A model generated the notes under the pieces. It saw nothing but the letters and a program-made list of their open reading frames with translations, had not been told where the DNA came from and did not search any database. The translations under genes were made by a program, and so were the position numbers. From a virus (Duplodnaviria; Caudoviricetes): DNA of 25,362 bases. Position 1 is the first letter of the stretch. The number at the start of each line of letters is the position of its first letter. Shown here in pieces: positions 10,650-23,209 of this stretch. Location of the stretch: IMG/VR virus record IMGVR_UViG_3300030330_002855, positions 1-25,362 of that record; one strand, given 5' to 3'.

Positions 10650-10988
10650 TTAATCGCCATCATATCTCTTGCGCTCTTCCCTCTCGTTTACCTTTTTAGT
10701 TCTCCACTCTTCAAAGCCAATCTTTAAAGCATCTATCTGCACCTTGACTGACATCAAGTGTCCTTGTGCAATGCCTACATTCAATCTAGATTGATAGATT
10801 ACATCTTGATTTTCTGCGTATGTTTCTTGTGAAGCAACTGATTTATTGCCATGAGAGATAGCTTCTGTCTTCAGTCGAGCCATAAGTCTCTGCAAGTTTG
10901 CCTTCTCATTATGAACTTCTATCTCTGCTTTCTCTAAGACAGGAGCGAGACCTCTAATTTTTTCCATCCACAATTCTTTTTCTTCCAT
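10650..10988 (-). CDS. Helical phage protein, possibly a UvsY-like recombination mediator
   Basis: 112 aa coiled-coil ending WRT..VNER, inside the recombination operon; SD-like GGGGG upstream. Function is inference only. Confidence 0.55.
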   Translation of the reverse strand: MEEKELWMEKIRGLAPVLEKAEIEVHNEKANLQRLMARLKTEAISHGNKSVASQETYAENQDVIYQSRLNVGIAQGHLMSVKVQIDALKIGFEEWRTKKVNEREERKRYDGD

Positions 10989-10992
10989 TTGA

Positions 10993-11304
10993 TTACCCCC
11001 TTTGCACTTTACTAATCTTATCTATAGTAAATGCTTCATTTTTAGTAGCATCTTTTCTTATTTGTTCATACTTTTTTTTAACGCCATCCTTCATAAAGCT
11101 ACAGTAAGCTTCTCTAGTTTTAGGAAATAAACCATTCAAAACATATTCGATTTGGTCTGTCATTTTCATATCTAATTCTTCTTCAAAGTGCTCCATCAAC
11201 TTAAATTCATTTTCTGAAAAAGAAACTTTCACTGCAAAATAATTTATCTCTGTTCCTCTAAAACACCCTTTATAAGGATTATTATCTATAATTTTTATCG
11301 CCAT
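10993..11304 (-). CDS. Hypothetical protein (103 aa)
   Basis: GGAGG RBS 5 nt upstream of ATG; co-oriented with the operon. Confidence 0.7.
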   Translation of the reverse strand: MAIKIIDNNPYKGCFRGTEINYFAVKVSFSENEFKLMEHFEEELDMKMTDQIEYVLNGLFPKTREAYCSFMKDGVKKKYEQIRKDATKNEAFTIDKISKVQRG

Positions 11305-13821: not shown

Positions 13822-14081
13822 TATTCTAACCTCCATATGCCTATGCCATTGACACCGTATTCATCTTCAGTAATTCTGCGAGTAGCAAATTTTCTTTTTG
13901 ATTTATTTTTGTAAGCCGATACAAAATTTCTAATTAATAATGCATCTTCATAATAATTATCCTCAGCCATAGGTACTTTTATCATCTCTCCAACCTGTAA
14001 TTCCTCTATGTTTATAGGGTATTTTTTAGGTCTGCCTGTACGTTTAGGCAACGGAATATCTTTTTCTATCTGATAACTCAT
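13821..14081 (-). CDS. Small phage protein, paralog B (IEKDIP...KYP...L.VGE...IWRL)
   Basis: GAGGG RBS; first gene of the leftward recombination operon. Confidence 0.75.
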   Translation of the reverse strand: MSYQIEKDIPLPKRTGRPKKYPINIEELQVGEMIKVPMAEDNYYEDALLIRNFVSAYKNKSKRKFATRRITEDEYGVNGIGIWRLE

Positions 14082-14111
14082 TTATAATCCCTCACATAAT
14101 TATGATATTAT

Positions 14112-14155
14112 ATAATAAATCATAGGTTGATAATATGCAACTTGTGTATTAGTAT
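14112..14155. promoter_or_regulatory. Divergent sigma70-like promoters
   Basis: Minus strand: TTGCAT (14140-14135)-N17-TATTAT (14117-14112). Plus strand: TTGATA (14127-14132)-N17-TAGTAT (14150-14155), which puts +1 at the ATG of 14162. Confidence 0.55.
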
Positions 14156-14161
14156 TTATAA

Positions 14162-14419
14162 ATGGCTAGTGGTGATGACAGTAAATTAATCAGAGCAATT
14201 TTTAAACAAGCAGTAAGAGATATTGCCAGTAAAGATTTGAATAAATCCACTGATGCCATGCAATATTTAAAGAGTGAGGACTTTCTAGATTTATGCGACA
14301 GTTTAAAGATCAATCATCAAGGTGCGGTGAAATCAATCATGGCACTAACTAATTATCCATTAATTTCAAGAAAGAAATTAGCCAACAATATTGCAAGGGA
14401 GATAGATACTTTAGTGTAG
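14162..14419 (+). CDS. Hypothetical protein (85 aa), probably leaderless
   Basis: L.RAIFKQAVRD...A..YL.SEDF..LC pattern; no SD; -10 element 7 nt upstream of ATG. Confidence 0.7.
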   Translation: MASGDDSKLIRAIFKQAVRDIASKDLNKSTDAMQYLKSEDFLDLCDSLKINHQGAVKSIMALTNYPLISRKKLANNIAREIDTLV

Positions 14420-14490
14420 TAGTTACTTACTACATTTACTAAGTGTTTATTTTAAAGGAGGTTACTACTTACTAGTAAGTTATTATAATA
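14415..14490. repeat. TACT-rich palindromic cluster upstream of the primase-helicase (promoter and possible origin/operator)
   Basis: TGTAGTA-N6-TACTACA (14415-14434), perfect palindrome ACTTACTAGTAAGT (14467-14480), TATTATAATA (14481-14490) containing TATAAT. Confidence 0.5.
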
Positions 14491-14507
14491 ATTTAGCGGA
14501 GAAAATT

Positions 14508-16262
14508 ATGGATGTCAACACAGCGGTAGAGTCGTCTACCTATTCCCTTAGCTTGGGACAACACAAAATCGCCTGTCCACTTTGTCAAGATACCCGATCA
14601 AAACATAAAAGGGATAAACCCTTATCAGTCAATATAGAAAGCGAAAAGATTATTTACAACTGCCATCACTGCGGTGAGAACGGAATCGTGCCAAAGAAAA
14701 CTCAAACAAGACTAAGAGCAGTCAAGCCAACACCAAAGCCTGTCACTAAAATAGATGAGCCTGTCAATGATTTGAGAAGCGTTGGCGCTTTATTTCTTAA
14801 AAGCAGAAAGATAAGTCCAGAGGTAGCTTTGTCTTACGGCACAGCGATTGGCGGATCAGGTGCAAATAAATATAAACCAGTCATAGGTTTTGTCTACCGC
14901 ACAGCAGAAGGGGATATTGAAGCTATCAAATATAGAGATGCCGAAGATAAAAGATTCTGGTGGGATGGCAATGCAACTAGGTTGTGGGGCACAAATGTCA
15001 AAGATAGAAAGCTACCCGATTTAGAAAACACCATTGTAATTACCGAAGGAGAGTTAGATGCCTTAGCAATCAAGACAGCCTTCCATGATTATATGAACGT
15101 AGAAGTTTATTCTGTACCAAATGGTGCGCCATCAAAGATTACTAACAATAAAGTCGATGCATCAGAGGACGGTAGATTTAAATACGTTTGGGAAGACAGG
15201 CAAAAGTTTGAGGGTGTAGAAAAGATTATACTGGCAACAGATAATGATGTGTCTGGTGATGTGTTAGCTGACGAATTATCTAGACGATTAAATAAAGCAA
15301 GGTGCTATCGTGTGGATTTCCAAGGCGAGAAAGATGCTAATGATTTGCTAATAGCAAAAGGCAAGTATGATTTAAAGCAGTCGATACTTAATGCAGAGCC
15401 GATACCATTACATGGATTAAACTCTATTGATCATTACTCAGAGGACTTCCAATCTCTGTACGAGAAAGGTATGCCTACTGGAGTTTCAACAGGTTTTGCT
15501 TCTGTGGATAAGCTGTTTACTCTTAGCACAGGAAATTTATTTGTCGTAACAGGATATCCCGGGGATGGCAAGTCAGCTTTTATTGACCAGTTAATAGTCA
15601 ATGTAGCTAGCAACAATGGTTGGAAGACTTGTTTCTGTAGTTTTGAAAAGCCACCTCATCTTCATGCAGTACAGATAGCACAAATACTTACAGGCAAACC
15701 CTTCTTTAAAGGCGTTAACACGCGAATGACACAAGAAGAAAAGGACTATGCAGAGTCATGGATTAAAGATCATATCTTGTTTCAAGACTATATGGATGGC
15801 GATATACCTACGATTGAAAGCATCTTGGAGAAGGGGGCGAATGCGGTACAGAGAGTCGGTGCAAGGATTCTAGTCATCGATCCGTTTAACTTTATTCAGA
15901 CTGACACTAAGTATGCGTTAGAAACAGACATGGTATCTGACATGCTTACTAAAGTTCAGTTGTTTGCAAAGCAACATGATGTCTTAGTATTTTTTGTAAG
16001 TCATCCGACCAAGCCACAAATTAGGGATGGCAAAAAGAATGTATGCACAGGAGTCGACATAGCTAAATCAATGGCATGGTTTTCTAAAGCAGACACAGGG
16101 ATTACAGTTTACAGAGGAGATGATGGAGTTCAGATTCATAACTGGAAAGCAAGATGGGGTTGGCAAGGTTCTCTTGGCAATGTTACGATGCAGTTCAATC
16201 CAGTTAACGGAAGGTATCGAGAGATAGCTAAAGTAGAAGATGACTTTGATTGGGAAATCTAA
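14508..16262 (+). CDS. Bifunctional DNA primase-helicase (T7 gp4/Twinkle-like)
   Basis: Zn ribbon CPLC...CHHC, TOPRIM ITEGELD and DND, Walker A GYPGDGKS, Walker B ILVID, HPTK motif; GCGGAG RBS. Confidence 0.93.
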   Translation: MDVNTAVESSTYSLSLGQHKIACPLCQDTRSKHKRDKPLSVNIESEKIIYNCHHCGENGIVPKKTQTRLRAVKPTPKPVTKIDEPVNDLRSVGALFLKSRKISPEVALSYGTAIGGSGANKYKPVIGFVYRTAEGDIEAIKYRDAEDKRFWWDGNATRLWGTNVKDRKLPDLENTIVITEGELDALAIKTAFHDYMNVEVYSVPNGAPSKITNNKVDASEDGRFKYVWEDRQKFEGVEKIILATDNDVSGDVLADELSRRLNKARCYRVDFQGEKDANDLLIAKGKYDLKQSILNAEPIPLHGLNSIDHYSEDFQSLYEKGMPTGVSTGFASVDKLFTLSTGNLFVVTGYPGDGKSAFIDQLIVNVASNNGWKTCFCSFEKPPHLHAVQIAQILTGKPFFKGVNTRMTQEEKDYAESWIKDHILFQDYMDGDIPTIESILEKGANAVQRVGARILVIDPFNFIQTDTKYALETDMVSDMLTKVQLFAKQHDVLVFFVSHPTKPQIRDGKKNVCTGVDIAKSMAWFSKADTGITVYRGDDGVQIHNWKARWGWQGSLGNVTMQFNPVNGRYREIAKVEDDFDWEI

Positions 16263-16755
16263 ACTTAAGATAAACGAAATAGGTAATGCCTATCTTCATT
16301 CAAAGCAGAGGGTAGGCATTTCAAAGGTTGAAGATACTAATATTGCTAGAGCAATAGTGTATGATCAGCACATCATAGATAGTCTTTATCTCAGTAACAA
16401 ACTAAACGAAAGCGAACACAATGCTTGTGATAAATACCTAGGTCTCATTGCAACTAGCGGTGCGTTTTTGCAAAGCTCAGCAGGAGCTGTTGATAAAATA
16501 TTTACTGGTCAATCTTTTCCTTCTACGCCTCGTTCTATTGTTCTCATCAAAGTTCAAAGAGAATTAAAAAAAGAATGCGGAGAACAAATAGAAAGAAAGT
16601 TCTGGAGAATAATGGTTGATTCACCTAAAGAATTAGATGATATAGATATACAAGTGGTGAAGACCTCGGCTAAAACTTTACTAAACTACTGGTATATTAG
16701 TCTTGGTGAAAGCCCTGTTGTGATGTTCCAACAAGCCCTTGAAGACCGACCTTGA
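16240..16755 (+). CDS. Hypothetical protein (171 aa)
   Basis: Overlaps the end of the helicase gene, co-oriented; converges on the RHH gene. Confidence 0.65.
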   Translation: MTLIGKSKLKINEIGNAYLHSKQRVGISKVEDTNIARAIVYDQHIIDSLYLSNKLNESEHNACDKYLGLIATSGAFLQSSAGAVDKIFTGQSFPSTPRSIVLIKVQRELKKECGEQIERKFWRIMVDSPKELDDIDIQVVKTSAKTLLNYWYISLGESPVVMFQQALEDRP

Positions 16756-16963
16756 CATCAGATGGCAGTTCCGCAGTCGTTGGAACGTCACTAATTTTTT
16801 CTAACCAATCTGGTTTTTTTACTTCAACTTCTATGCCCAACCTTTCTGCTTCGTTGTGAATTAAATGTATGATTTGTTTAGTAACTGATCTGCTTTCTTT
16901 TTTAGCAAGATCATTTGCCAACTGATAAGTTTCTTCTGAACATCTAATGTATAGATTTTTCAT
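16697..16963 (-). CDS. Ribbon-helix-helix (Arc-like) DNA-binding protein
   Basis: KNLYIRCSEETYQLANDLAKKESRSVTKQIIHLI fits the beta-alpha-alpha RHH pattern; start at 16963 or 16969. Confidence 0.75.
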   Translation of the reverse strand: MKNLYIRCSEETYQLANDLAKKESRSVTKQIIHLIHNEAERLGIEVEVKKPDWLEKISDVPTTAELPSDVKVGLQGLVGTSQQGFHQD

Positions 16964-17237
16964 CCTCATATTCCTCTATGTGTATGGTGTCTTCAACCTT
17001 ACCAACTGCAACTGATTCATTTCCCAACTGCCAAAACTTACCTGTCTGCAATCTTTCTAATGCGTGTGCTAAGTAATGCTCATTGCCAATCAACACAGGG
17101 TCAGTCAATAAAGTGATCGCATAAGCCATAGCTTTTCGTTCAGTATCAAACAACCAAACCTTGTGTTGCCATTCACCTTGAGAGTTATACTTATCTCTAA
17201 GATCAAGCACAAACGTATGTCTTATTACTGCGTACAT
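16944..17237 (-). CDS. Hypothetical protein (97 aa), probably leaderless
   Basis: No SD; ATG 7 nt downstream of a TATAAT. Confidence 0.7.
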   Translation of the reverse strand: MYAVIRHTFVLDLRDKYNSQGEWQHKVWLFDTERKAMAYAITLLTDPVLIGNEHYLAHALERLQTGKFWQLGNESVAVGKVEDTIHIEEYEDEKSIH

Positions 17238-17243
17238 AGATTT

Positions 17244-17272
17244 ATTATATAGCTTAATGCAAGCCTTGTGAA
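17244..17272 (-). promoter_or_regulatory. sigma70-like promoter for the 97-aa/RHH operon
   Basis: TTCACA (17272-17267)-N17-TATAAT (17249-17244). Confidence 0.65.
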
Positions 17273-17292
17273 ATCTTTAGTCGAACATCAAT

Positions 17293-17320
17293 AAAAAAGG
17301 GAGCAACTTGCGTTACTCCC
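17293..17320 (-). terminator. Intrinsic terminator
   Basis: GGGAGUAAC-GCAA-GUUGCUCCC followed by U6. Confidence 0.85.
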
Positions 17321-17356
17321 TTTGCGGAGGTGTCAACCAAATGGAATCGTCAACAC
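17293..17356 (-). ncRNA. Candidate small RNA 1 (antisense to the primase-helicase translation start)
   Basis: GUGUUGAC-GAUUCCAUUUG-GUUGACAC hairpin, CUCCGCAAA linker and terminator, directly downstream of a promoter. 5' end uncertain by a few nt. Confidence 0.65.
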
Positions 17357-17360
17357 AATA

Positions 17361-17388
17361 ATTATACGTTATAGATTGCATAGTGCAA
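17361..17388 (-). promoter_or_regulatory. sigma70-like promoter of sRNA 1
   Basis: TTGCAC (17388-17383)-N16-TATAAT (17366-17361). Confidence 0.65.
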
Positions 17389-17393
17389 GAAAA

Positions 17394-17441
17394 AAACTAC
17401 ATATAGTGTATTAATTATTTAGCCACCACAATATGTTGTGC
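17394..17441. promoter_or_regulatory. Tandem NrdR-box-like sites
   Basis: AAACTACATATAGTGT (17394-17409) and CCACAATATGTTGTGC (17426-17441) fit the consensus acaCwAtATaTwGtgt and are offset by 32 bp. Confidence 0.6.
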
Positions 17442-17535
17442 TTTTGCCGCGAGTTAAAAAAAATATTTACTGGTCAACAGTCGTTTACCACAGGTATTAA
17501 AAACACAGGTGTAGGTAAAGCAACTTTTAATAGAT

Positions 17536-17563
17536 AAAAAAAAGGGATGACTATTGCCATCCC
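17536..17563 (-). terminator. Intrinsic terminator (end of early operon / sRNA 2)
   Basis: GGGAUGGC-AAUA-GUCAUCCC followed by U8. Confidence 0.85.
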
Positions 17564-17598
17564 GAAGGGGGTATCACGAATGAATAACTAATCGTGAT
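17536..17598 (-). ncRNA. Candidate small RNA 2 (antisense to recombination-gene translation starts)
   Basis: AUCACGA-UUAGUUAUUCAU-UCGUGAU hairpin, ACCCCCUUC linker and terminator; same design as sRNA 1. Confidence 0.6.
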
Positions 17599-17601
17599 TA
17601 A

Positions 17602-17629
17602 ATTATATATTAAACCTCAATAAGTTCAA
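17602..17629 (-). promoter_or_regulatory. sigma70-like promoter of sRNA 2, overlapping the end of the upstream CDS
   Basis: TTGAAC (17629-17624)-N16-TATAAT (17607-17602). Confidence 0.5.
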
Positions 17630-17840
17630 CTTCCTCTATCGACACTTCTCTGTGGACAACCTCACAGTTATCTTGCCCTGTCCAATAGAATAAGTATCGA
17701 CCATCTGTCTGCTGATACTCCTCGAGTGCTCTTATTGTCTCTTCAACTTTTTGTTCTGCTTGCTCAGCGTTTTCTGCATCAACTTCCACAGTAAAAGAAT
17801 CTGTGGTGATCATTCCAACTTTAAACTTTTTAATTCCCAT
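17610..17840 (-). CDS. Small acidic protein, DpnD/PcfM-like
   Basis: KKFKV......TVEVDAENAEQAEQKV pattern; GGAGG RBS. Confidence 0.65.
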   Translation of the reverse strand: MGIKKFKVGMITTDSFTVEVDAENAEQAEQKVEETIRALEEYQQTDGRYLFYWTGQDNCEVVHREVSIEEVELIEV

Positions 17841-17871
17841 TTGTGTGTCCTCCCTGCTGTAAAAAAAATAT

Positions 17872-18069
17872 TTATTGACCCGTTAATAATCCTTCCTCAA
17901 TGAATTCTTTGTCTGCCAAGCAATCTTGACATACCAAAGTCGAGCCATCGTCAAAGGTGTCTCGATAACCTCGGCTATCGAAAACACCGTACACATCTCC
18001 CGTTGTCCAGAGATCGTCATCTTTATCAACGATCTCCTCGCATCGATCACACCAGTTCTGCTCTCTCAT
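17872..18069 (-). CDS. Small acidic Zn-finger protein (CxxC...CxxC)
   Basis: CDRC and CQDC; ATGA overlap with the upstream gene. Confidence 0.7.
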   Translation of the reverse strand: MREQNWCDRCEEIVDKDDDLWTTGDVYGVFDSRGYRDTFDDGSTLVCQDCLADKEFIEEGLLTGQ

Positions 18070-19430
18070 CGGTACGCTTCTTCAGCATCAAGGTAGATGT
18101 GTTTACCAAAAGGTAAGTTCTCTGCCATGCGCTTGATGTAATAGTCATCAGTAAAGAATCGCTCATCAGTAATCGCCCAATAGACTGGCAAGTCTGGTTG
18201 CAATTCTGCATTCACATCGCCATGACCATCCGTAAAATAGATTAGTGCCTGTATCTCATGTGCATTATCGGTGTAGTCATTGAGTAAATTCATGACTGGA
18301 TCAAACTCTGTGTAATAACCACCGCGCAACTTGAACTCGATCTCATCGCCACAGCTTAGATCAAAGACATCCCACCATTCACCATCACTATTTTTTCTAA
18401 CGATGTGATCACAGTAACAGACCATTACTTTGTCTAGCCCTAATTCCTCAGCAATAACTCTGGTTTCTTTCGCCATGTAGTCAGCTTCCTTCTGACTGAC
18501 TGACACACTTGAATCCATAGCGATAGCTAACACACCGCCATCAACACTATGCGTGGGCGATGGCATGTGAACACCTCTCCAAGAATGCTTTCTATTAGGC
18601 TTAGACCATGTGTAATCATCAGCTATATTTGACTTCATATCATCGCCAATCACCTCAGACCATTTGATGGTAGATTTTCTAGCTATATCTGACATAACAC
18701 CTATTAAGGCATTCCCTTCACCGTTGCCATGTGATCGCTCTAGCTTCTCGCCCATAACGACATCTTGTCTGAGTGCGCTAGCCATTTCTTCTAACTCCTC
18801 GCCATTAAACTCTCTGCCATCGTCATGTTTAGGCATAATGATTTCGCCTTGCGAGTCTGGAAGATTGTCATACTTTGATGGCGGAGGAGTGTTCTGTGTG
18901 CCATCCTCAGAAGAATATTTACCAGTCGATTGTTGTTCATCTTCTGTGCCGTCATCAGAGTCGGAGTCATTCCCAGATTGATCGCTGTTGCTCTCATCAT
19001 TCTGTTCTTTATCTTGATCCAACTCATCATCCAAGATGGAGTAAACTTTCTCAGCACCCATACCTTTAAATCGCGCGTCATACAATCCACCTTCGGGCAA
19101 CTTCATTCCAAGTACATCTAGAATATACATATTGATCACATAGTCACACGCGATATTCCAAAGTTTATGATTGCGTTTACCGATCCTTAAATGATGCTCA
19201 AAGATAACGTGACAACCCTCATGAAATAAAACACCCTGTATCGCTTCGGATAATAAATCTTTCACAAATTCTGGATTGTAATAAATCTTACGACCATCTG
19301 TTGCCATAGTCGGCTTAGTCTCATCTTCGACAATCTCTAAAGGTAAGAGTATTGATGCCATGCCAACTTGATCGCGCATGAGGGCGGTTCTCGCCTTTAT
19401 TACCATTTCTTTAGGGGTAAGGTTAGTCAT
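18066..19430 (-). CDS. Metallopeptidase-VWA protein (DUF2201-like)
   Basis: TMATDG, HEGCH...H..R, WNIACDY.IN, acidic linker, PNR, MIDAS-like DSSVS and FTDG. Confidence 0.88.
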   Translation of the reverse strand: MTNLTPKEMVIKARTALMRDQVGMASILLPLEIVEDETKPTMATDGRKIYYNPEFVKDLLSEAIQGVLFHEGCHVIFEHHLRIGKRNHKLWNIACDYVINMYILDVLGMKLPEGGLYDARFKGMGAEKVYSILDDELDQDKEQNDESNSDQSGNDSDSDDGTEDEQQSTGKYSSEDGTQNTPPPSKYDNLPDSQGEIIMPKHDDGREFNGEELEEMASALRQDVVMGEKLERSHGNGEGNALIGVMSDIARKSTIKWSEVIGDDMKSNIADDYTWSKPNRKHSWRGVHMPSPTHSVDGGVLAIAMDSSVSVSQKEADYMAKETRVIAEELGLDKVMVCYCDHIVRKNSDGEWWDVFDLSCGDEIEFKLRGGYYTEFDPVMNLLNDYTDNAHEIQALIYFTDGHGDVNAELQPDLPVYWAITDERFFTDDYYIKRMAENLPFGKHIYLDAEEAYR

Positions 19431-20382: not shown

Positions 20383-20416
20383 TTATTTTTTCCTCCTAAA
20401 AAATATTATTGACCAA

Positions 20417-21463: not shown

Positions 21464-21495
21464 AGAATGTCCTCCATGTAATTTAAGTTTAATGT

Positions 21496-21547: not shown

Positions 21548-21988
21548 CTACTTTATAAAACTTGGTTTTTTATAAAGGCAATCGTTAAACAAATCAATTG
21601 TCCTTACAGCATCCTCCAAGGTATCGTAGTGATCCACCGCGGTGTAATCATCTAAGTCAAATTTCTCTGAATCTGATGATGGTGCGTAAACTACCCACCC
21701 ATCATCATGACGCTCATGCTTTCTGATCAACCAATTTCTGTAGACGAATACCTCTTCATCCCACTCAGTTAGTCCAATCCAATTTGTAAACGTAATTACT
21801 TCAAAATCTAAATCCTCAATATTCTGTAATGCACTGAGCGTCCATGTGTCAGTTTTCATTAATTGTTTAAACTTTTTTGCTGTCGCGCACACTGGATAGT
21901 AACGATCATGATTTGTTTTGTTATATGCTTTCCTATGGCTAAGAGCATCTTCTCCATACACTACAAAAATTTTCTTTGTTGATTCCAT
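21548..21988 (-). CDS. Hypothetical early protein (146 aa)
   Basis: GAGG RBS. N-terminal VYG....YYPVC..AK.F..L....T.T...L..I..L.F pattern is common in marine phage early genes. Confidence 0.75.
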   Translation of the reverse strand: MESTKKIFVVYGEDALSHRKAYNKTNHDRYYPVCATAKKFKQLMKTDTWTLSALQNIEDLDFEVITFTNWIGLTEWDEEVFVYRNWLIRKHERHDDGWVVYAPSSDSEKFDLDDYTAVDHYDTLEDAVRTIDLFNDCLYKKPSFIK

Positions 21989-22028
21989 TTTTAATTCCTC
22001 TATTTAAGTTAATCGATTATCACTAAGT

Positions 22029-22190
22029 TTATGCGTAAACATTACGTCTAGTGTTTCTGTCTTTAGACCATTGCTTCGGTCTACCTTTATCTTTAGTTCT
22101 CTTACCTCTCTGGATACCATTCCAGAAATCTAGGTTTACCTTGTCGAACTTGCGAACGGCTATCCGTTCTTTGTTTATGTTGCTTGTCAT
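22029..22190 (-). CDS. Small basic early protein (53 aa, start revised to MTSNINK)
   Basis: GGAGGT RBS 5 nt upstream of ATG 22190; K/R-rich. Confidence 0.65.
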   Translation of the reverse strand: MTSNINKERIAVRKFDKVNLDFWNGIQRGKRTKDKGRPKQWSKDRNTRRNVYA

Positions 22191-22263
22191 GTAACACCTC
22201 CAAGTGTCTGTTTTTGTTAAGGTTTGTATGGGTGGCGCACCTCGCGCCCTGTCCATACTTATA

Positions 22264-23051: not shown

Positions 23052-23087
23052 TTGACTTTTATGTGAAGAGGGCTAATATTGTATAAT
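23052..23087 (+). promoter_or_regulatory. Candidate promoter for terL/portal
   Basis: TTGACT (23052-23057)-N16-TAATAT (23074-23079), plus a TATAAT at 23082-23087. Confidence 0.5.
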
Positions 23088-23209
23088 CTGTAGTTAGATA
23101 TACCTTGAGTGCCAGTTAGGTAGTTACTAGATATTAGTATGTACCTACTATAGGAACTACATATTCTTTTTTTTAGAAGGTTTATACAAGACAGGTATGA
23201 ACTACATAT

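Follow-up and report, generated by a model that had tools for sequence, protein, structure and literature searches.

The locus examined here raises the question of what a short minus-strand transcription unit, located between genes and 2.8 kb away from the start of a phage primase-helicase gene, would regulate. The first-pass annotation proposed that its RNA is complementary to the Shine-Dalgarno sequence (SD), start codon and first codons of the primase-helicase. The window, meaning the whole stretch of 25,362 nucleotides that was analyzed, is a fragment of an uncultured phage genome and ends in terminase. Tail genes come first; next is a recombination operon that runs leftward and encodes a RusA-like resolvase, Sak and an exonuclease. 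The primase-helicase operon, which runs rightward, separates it from a second leftward operon, that of the AAA ATPase, DUF3150 and vWA genes, and the terminase follows. The DUF3150 Pfam match scores below the curated cut-off. The AAA operon is called early and the Sak operon middle; these labels were assigned by position and content, not by timing, and the gene starts are our own SD-weighted calls.

The phages that carry the RNA are a widespread, uncultured marine family. The window terminase and capsid are nearest to those of DSL-LC04, HTVC027P, HTVC023P and MinM2, and the best primase match among cultured phages is 35% (MinM2/Pag-Yong1/Pra-JY27). A literature search for the phage family found no matching description in print. 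The CRP-810 phages were considered as the source of a family name and rejected; the passages available on them describe a different family. One scan of genome contigs for a host or prophage gave 89 pattern matches, with no relative among them. In pattern scans for the window's own lineage an identical contig was the sole member recognised, and 32 further stretches also matched.

The small RNA gene and its counterparts in relatives

The minus-strand RNA is predicted to fold into a hairpin at the 5' end and a terminator, with the open 6-nt linker CUCCGC (17329-17324) between them (Table 1). The fold has a z score of -5.2 and was matched by 0 of 200 shuffles, and the terminator is the first in the list from the terminator scan. 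The promoter, TTGCAC-16-TATAAT, was found by script; the consensus promoter scan of the window lists no promoter for the small RNA. The open linker is the exact complement of the primase GCGGAG. An Rfam search of the window returned two chance-level matches, both away from the small RNA.

Table 1. Positions of the small RNA gene, its predicted partners and neighboring features in the window.
Feature	Position	Strand	Basis or comment
Start of 112-aa gene (10988)	10983..11004	-	strong predicted partner in the window phage only, -16.7 to -20.8
Leftward promoter-like site TTGACA-17-TAAATT, overlapping primase start	14490..14518	-	consensus promoter scan
Predicted target: primase-helicase SD, start codon, first codons	14496..14522	+	sequence, predicted duplex, family co-variation
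Primase-helicase gene, Toprim and DnaB_C, 584 aa	14508..16262	+	profile matches
Small RNA gene, about 62-65 nt, predicted 5' end 17354-17357	17293..17356	-	fold, terminator, conserved unit
Intrinsic terminator and U-run of small RNA	17293..17323	-	terminator scan; in L163 loop changed, stem kept
Anti-SD seed CCUCCGC, CUCCGC single-stranded	17324..17330	-	predicted fold
5' hairpin of small RNA; 5' strand GUGUUGAC, loop CCAU	17330..17356	-	predicted fold
-10 TATAAT of small RNA promoter	17361..17366	-	sequence; unchanged in L163
-35 TTGCAC (17388-17383) within palindrome TTGCA-N3-TGCAA	17376..17388	-	sequence; TTGC-type -35 recurs in relatives
Second small RNA, same design (hairpin, ACCCCC linker, terminator)	17536..17598	-	fold, terminator scan
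SD of DUF3150 gene	20383..20400	-	co-varies family-wide; only 5 bp in the window phage
SD of AAA (MoxR-like) ATPase	21464..21480	-	co-varies family-wide; only 5-6 bp in the window phage
Predicted target: start of 53-aa early gene (22190)	22188..22206	-	seed helix 8 Watson-Crick, 11 with G-U

One 172-nt contig (17293-17464) from an RNA library of seawater spans the small RNA gene and stops at the last base of the U-run. The contig may be a weak hint at a transcript, or may be DNA; its other end, 17464, lies about 110 nt upstream of the predicted RNA start and its depth is 3.4 in one study. Within 14000-18300 that RNA run covers nothing beyond this contig, which is no sign of silence elsewhere.

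The primase and the 171-aa neighbor gene served as queries to collect relatives, and 80 of about 346 relatives from the metagenome scan were kept. The neighbor gene was found at 217 loci, repeat fetches of contigs included, and 186 of these extend at least 1500 nt past it. The unit is conserved: a minus-strand terminator is present in 181 of the 186 loci and CCTCC occurs at most 125 nt upstream of the terminator in 163, which is a count of loci with repeat fetches included and so not of independent phages. Eleven of the 23 loci without the unit were inspected; eight have ACCTCCA but no six-T terminator and three are empty. There are 84 distinct RNAs among the loci, and the base after CCTCC is A in 64, T in 17 and G in 3. 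Of 89 distinct RNAs, 74 have a promoter call of the TTG-17-TAnnnT type. By predicted folding of those 74, the mean unpaired probability is 0.59-0.91 for CCUCC and 0.12-0.37 for most flanking positions.

The RNA counterparts occupy the same genomic slot and expose CCUCC between helices of otherwise free sequence, and the 5' hairpin sequences are unrelated between clades. Rfam gave no match at gathering score for the seven relative loci searched. As predicted from sequence, the family has a conserved single-stranded seed, its own promoter, an intrinsic terminator and no conserved ORF, all of which are marks of a trans-acting sRNA.

Several features surround the RNA gene. A palindrome TTGCA-N3-TGC(A/T)A covers the small RNA -35 in most relatives (window 17376-17388) and may be an operator or activator site. 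The gap that separates the early terminator from the RNA promoter contains CCAGTAAATATTT / AAATATTTACTGG repeats and ACAACATA/GTGTGG-type repeats (window 17459-17475, same gap in relatives), which are possible protein-binding sites or a possible origin. Downstream of the small RNA is a 90-aa gene (16697-16969, minus strand) that has no Pfam or PHROG match; we take it to resemble a ribbon-helix-helix regulator. A strain contig in run X2 has about 780 extra bases at window 16966-16979, where the 97-aa and 90-aa genes meet; the overlap there is 14 bases.

The cultured Synechococcus phage MinM2 (L276) is a distant relative with the same gene order. It has CCTCCC directly before a terminator in the equivalent slot (about 14400-14580, minus strand), and its primase site TGGAGG gives only a 5 bp match. 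The RNA region occurs twice in L072, and the neighbor gene occurs twice on contig VTLG01003436.1 (L166/L167); either may be a duplication or an assembly artefact. The RNAs of L215 and L219 have a tandem pair of CCUCC motifs. The window, alone among the 217 loci, has two RNA units of this design. The best predicted partner of the second RNA (17536-17598) is the 10988 start, AAGGGGGTA, at -19.5 with the next at -11.0, and the 112-aa gene of the window has an unusual GGGGG site.

Predicted pairing at the primase start

The first-pass annotation described three colinear blocks shared by the RNA gene and the primase start, and direct reading bears this out in full. On the plus strand at the small RNA the blocks are GCGGAG (17324-17329), ATGGAATC (17341-17348) and GTCAACACA (17349-17357). 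At the primase start they are GCGGAG (14496-14501), ATGGAT (14508-14513) and GTCAACACA (14514-14522), with TATAAT at 14484-14489 as annotated. The exact sequence GTCAACACA has two occurrences in the window, at 14514 and 17349. In the window lineage, the 5' strand GUGUUGAC and the loop CCAU are complementary to primase codons 1-5. The seed helix with the primase in the window phage is 6 bp, and the predicted duplex contains bulges.

With folding costs included, the primase ranks first of 28 window starts when the RNA 5' end is at 17356-58. With a 5' end at 17354-55 it drops to second, and the 112-aa gene start at 10988 leads from 17355 downstream. The annotation noted that the transcribed share of the 9-nt block hinges on the exact +1; the canonical +1 (7th base past the -10) is 17354, which would keep 6 of the 9 bases in the RNA and put 10988 first. 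At a +1 of 17356, the primase binding energy is -19.3 (leader from 14496) or -17.9 (longer leader), and the next is 10988 at -16.7. The match at 10988 is present, but was wrongly called weaker. It was rejected as a conserved target, with no family co-variation and an energy of -9.1 with the RNA of L163, the closest relative of the window. The other secondary match, GATTCCATTT at the 146-aa gene start (21981-21990), is also present, but this start ranks low among the 28 and was likewise rejected as a conserved target. The primase duplex of -28.7 kcal/mol is reached by 48 of 5000 shuffles of the RNA 5' domain with the seed kept, and the best of the 28 starts reaches the observed primase duplex in 8 of 400 shuffles of that domain.

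A rightward promoter at 14484, from which the annotation would start the primase mRNA at about the GCGGAG, is absent from the list of the consensus promoter scan. The scan does list a promoter at 14127-14155, from which a leaderless gene of 85 aa, immediately upstream of the primase, would be transcribed. The primase leader may therefore be internal to a longer mRNA. The scan also places the leftward promoter-like site of Table 1 over the primase start. Among the matches listed, TTGAC is present at the primase starts of 52 of 57 relatives, in two reading frames (28 and 24), and a TAnnnT -10-like hexamer follows 16-18 nt past it in 43 of 57; three of the 57 primase rows were dropped, namely L170 and two that lack an SD window. 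At the primase start, the 9-nt block thus doubles as a putative conserved leftward -35 box.

The leftward -35/-10 sits in primase codons 2-4 and the SD flank (window 14490-14518). A promoter at this site would transcribe across the 85-aa plus-strand gene and face that gene's promoter at 14127-14155. Palindromic repeats rich in TAGT/ACTA lie upstream of the primase (14420-14483) and of the large terminase (23080-23170). No start codon follows an additional AAGGAGGT at 14456-14463.

L163 is 77% identical to the window on the neighbor gene. The loop and the 3' strand of its RNA differ from those of the window RNA by six substitutions and one deletion, while GUGUUGACG, CCAUU and CACCUCCGC are unchanged and all three blocks are kept. 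Against the window starts, the L163 RNA ranks the primase first (-16.8), the next start scores -9.6 and 10988 falls to -9.1. This is one supportive comparison, in which the primase start of L163 itself is off the contig and the promoter region is also nearly invariant. Across the family, contacts of the 5' hairpin with the start codon and first codons do not reach significance, and the primase z of 1.6-1.9 is like that of control genes. The predicted extension of the pairing into the coding region persists in L163 without being a trait of the family. The proposed pairing over SD, start codon and codons survives in part, since L163 keeps the blocks; the family-wide feature is the short anti-SD seed only.

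When 19 hand-picked representatives were analyzed with full folding, the primase was the first-ranked start in 6 and among the top three in 9; in 4 it fell to 12th-23rd. In the window phage a seed helix of at least 7 bp occurs at one of seven early starts, that of the 53-aa gene at 22190. This start has the longest seed helix in the window among the matches listed, with a modest binding energy of -9.7. Because the early sites fit poorly in the window phage, the primase is the main predicted target there, in line with the annotation. The primase start is thus a credible target of the RNA, but not the sole one.

Co-variation of the seed with ribosome-binding sites

The co-variation score is the longest helix through the seed between the RNA and a start region, compared for pairs from the same phage and from different phages. 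The p values were obtained by permutation with one representative per cluster; 16 families, 4 scores and 3 depths were examined. Orthologues more than 6% or more than 8 aa off the family median length were dropped. L170, with a mis-extracted RNA, was dropped from the robustness draws and from the sister-pair, G-U and per-position tests.

The flanks of the seed co-vary with the primase and early sites; complementarity of seed and target that is kept over evolution is a further mark of a trans-acting base-pairing sRNA. At 16 clusters (78% primase identity), own versus other seed helices are 7.2 vs 5.7 for the primase, 8.3 vs 6.6 for the AAA ATPase and 7.3 vs 6.0 for DUF3150, with p values of 0.0002-0.0008. 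The middle operon genes Sak, SSB, 112-aa, 80-aa and exonuclease have no own-phage helix excess at this depth. The z scores of the primase, AAA ATPase and DUF3150 are 3-6 at three clustering depths when the window is excluded. In robustness draws the window and its three identical copies were left out and representatives were drawn at random at 85, 78 and 72% clustering. The primase, AAA and DUF3150 reach p<0.05 in 40 of 40 draws at each depth. Sak, 112-aa, 80-aa and exonuclease reach it in none of 40 at any depth, and SSB in 10, 0 and 0. For the vWA gene, which is also early, co-variation is not robust, with p<0.05 in 0, 3 and 2 of the 40 draws. The view of the primase as target is supported by this result, but across the family the early leftward operon is an equally strong or stronger partner.

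Because the clusters remain related by descent, a further test used sister pairs whose tree paths do not overlap. The primase alone gives 5.5 positive vs 2.0 negative pairs (p 0.29), and AAA alone and DUF3150 alone are not significant. With all early starts pooled, there are 11.5 positive vs 2.3 negative pairs (median p 0.02), or 13.4 vs 1.6 when G-U is allowed (p 0.007); middle starts give 6.4 vs 4.8. Per-position independent pairs for the primase all lean one way and none is at p<0.05. In own pairs, G-U extensions exceed the mirror A-C ones for early genes and the primase at 24 and 16 clusters (p 0.003-0.03), as predicted by RNA pairing on this strand. The preference is absent for middle genes and is not significant at 6-7 clusters, where that of the primase vanishes.

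In four complete genomes, helices of at least 7 bp occur at 19 of 43 early starts, 2 of 4 primase starts, 2 of 56 middle starts and 4 of 172 late starts. Among the matches listed for the phages with CCUCCA, the SD is TGGAGG at 295 of 382 early starts and AGGAGG at 120 of 175 middle starts, counts that are not independent. The tail of 16S rRNA is CCUCCU. The preference of host 16S alone would therefore not explain the split between early and middle sites. A -10 box lies 5-7 nt before the ATG in 15/31, 21/40 and 21/33 distinct starts of three genes that look leaderless across the family, the 85-aa (14162), 97-aa (17237) and small terminase (22353) genes. The control counts are 0/52 for Sak and 0/45 for AAA starts.

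Alternative explanations and proposed role

The small RNA probably pairs in trans with the ribosome-binding sites of the primase and of the early operon and blocks their translation. It is unlikely that the RNA is a dedicated primase repressor, with the three-block pairing as its purpose and the other matches incidental. The first rank of the primase among 28 starts, the blocks kept in L163 and the primase co-variation, which holds at 6-7 clusters, would all fit such a repressor, as would rank 1 in 6 of 19 representatives versus about 0.9 expected from list sizes by our own arithmetic. The 5' extension, however, lacks family-wide significance, AAA and DUF3150 co-vary equally strongly and most long helices sit at early starts. 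Among the matches listed, the L002 clade has 4 bp with its primase and up to 12 with its AAA gene, and the 9-nt block overlaps a conserved -35. A general anti-SD RNA that acts on host mRNAs or a host factor, by ribosome competition or as a CCUCC/GGAGG decoy, is similarly improbable. The phage matches would then reflect shared SD usage, in keeping with the only 5-6 bases that are both conserved and open, with the weak sites of late genes and with the three leaderless-looking genes. Such an RNA would predict neither the co-variation of the flanks with primase, AAA and DUF3150 but not with the strong-site genes Sak and SSB, nor the split between early TGGAGG and middle AGGAGG in the CCUCCA phages.

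Explanations that dispense with RNA-RNA pairing are less likely still. The motif could be a DNA or protein-binding site, such as an operator or repeats homogenised by recombination, which is present at early starts and at the primase and is inverted in the RNA unit. Long repeated leaders are common to early starts within one phage and a promoter overlaps the primase start, as this would suggest, but in mRNAs the motif is spaced like an SD, on the complementary strand it falls in the open linker of a unit with promoter and terminator, and G-U is preferred to A-C at 24 and 16 clusters; a DNA motif is thus quite improbable. The chance that there is no RNA gene at all is very small. In that case the match would come from the SD and start of a small ORF on the plus strand, or the region would be that of a terminator; some clades do have SD and ATG on the plus strand, with 6 codons in the window. 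Other clades have no start codon, or have variable spacing and length; a promoter and U-run are present on the minus strand, and the early operon has its own terminator upstream.

A literature search, which covered few subscription papers and no supplements, found no description matching the small RNA. The ColE2 RNA I and R1 CopA are antisense RNAs that control plasmid replication, and are cis-encoded and fully complementary. Repression of the translation of a replication protein by RNA, as predicted for the small RNA, is common to these systems; unlike them, the small RNA is trans-encoded and has a 6-12 bp core. As far as the cited passages go, the alphaproteobacterial Cuckoo RNAs (RSs0680/CcsR, ar14) have 2-4 hairpins with CCUCCUCCC in each loop (PMC4615179). 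They also have an anti-SD pyrimidine motif that is held open by helices of freely varying sequence. The small RNA is phage-encoded, in contrast to these bacterial RNAs, has one CCUCC(G/A/U) mostly in a linker and has no Rfam match. Membership of the Cuckoo family was rejected, with neither the 2-4 hairpins with CCUCCUCCC loops nor an Rfam match found.

P22 sar, lambda OOP and aQ are described as antisense RNAs with one named target each in lysis-lysogeny control, and sar blocks translation initiation of ant (PMC12197685). They resemble the small RNA as short phage RNAs that pair with phage mRNA. Unlike those RNAs in the source, the small RNA is 2.8 kb from the primase, with imperfect pairing and several predicted targets, and the four complete relatives have no integrase to match the tie to lysis-lysogeny. 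A cis-encoded antisense RNA of the sar/OOP type was ruled out by the intergenic site 2.8 kb off and the bulged duplex. SviR of the Vibrio satellite PLE is a trans-acting, seed-pairing RNA with several targets near ribosome-binding sites, some of them in PLE's own genome (bioRxiv 10.1101/2022.04.08.487710). It is likewise a trans RNA of a viral element with several targets, but SviR is used by a satellite against its helper phage and has two seeds. A family-wide anti-SD seed that co-varies with its targets is a trait of the small RNA and does not appear in the passages on SviR. What is new in the small RNA is this predicted target set of an anti-SD RNA with evolutionary support; in the papers covered, the anti-SD small RNAs of phages are candidates to which no targets are assigned. 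By analogy, the small RNA would work like T4 RegB, an endoribonuclease that inactivates early mRNAs at GGAG sites (PMC3014915). From what is described there, RegB is a protein that cuts, whereas the RNA would mask the site and take its specificity from pairing to the SD flanks.

Pairing with the primase and early leaders and their repression are likely predictions. In the proposed mechanism, the host polymerase would transcribe the small RNA and the open CCUCC(A/G/U) linker would serve as a toehold on the SD. The flanking helices would then unzip to form 7-12 bp with sites that bear the phage's own extended motif, and in the window lineage the duplex would extend across the start codon into codons 2-5 of the primase. 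Binding of 30S would be blocked at the paired leaders. Middle genes with AGGAG-type sites, late genes with weak sites and leaderless genes would escape repression. The result may be a damping of early and replication proteins as infection proceeds, or replication may be held down in a non-integrated carrier state. These are the likely jobs because tyrosine integrase and HTH_3 repressor matches are absent from all four complete relatives (96-100% complete), and serine recombinase and PolA matches were also found in 0 of 4.

The more than 80 distinct natural variants of the RNA lead to named, testable targets, which are the primase, AAA ATPase and DUF3150. Negative controls are built in with Sak and SSB, and natural compensatory pairs are available (L206 vs L064, L012 vs L007, and L014 vs the window). 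If the preferred reading is true, one tiny RNA times the phage's own early and replication genes through co-evolving letters around their ribosome-binding sites. A further and more tentative proposal, for which the chances seem somewhat short of even, is that each lineage tunes its own dialect, an extended SD on the primase and early genes, and that one RNA of 60-140 nt switches this whole class off at the same time, with genes that have AGGAG-type sites, weak SDs or no leader left on. Both readings are open to reporter tests even before the host is identified. If the dialect proposal is true, the small RNA would be an RNA counterpart of T4 RegB and would act as a stage switch in a widespread family of marine phages.
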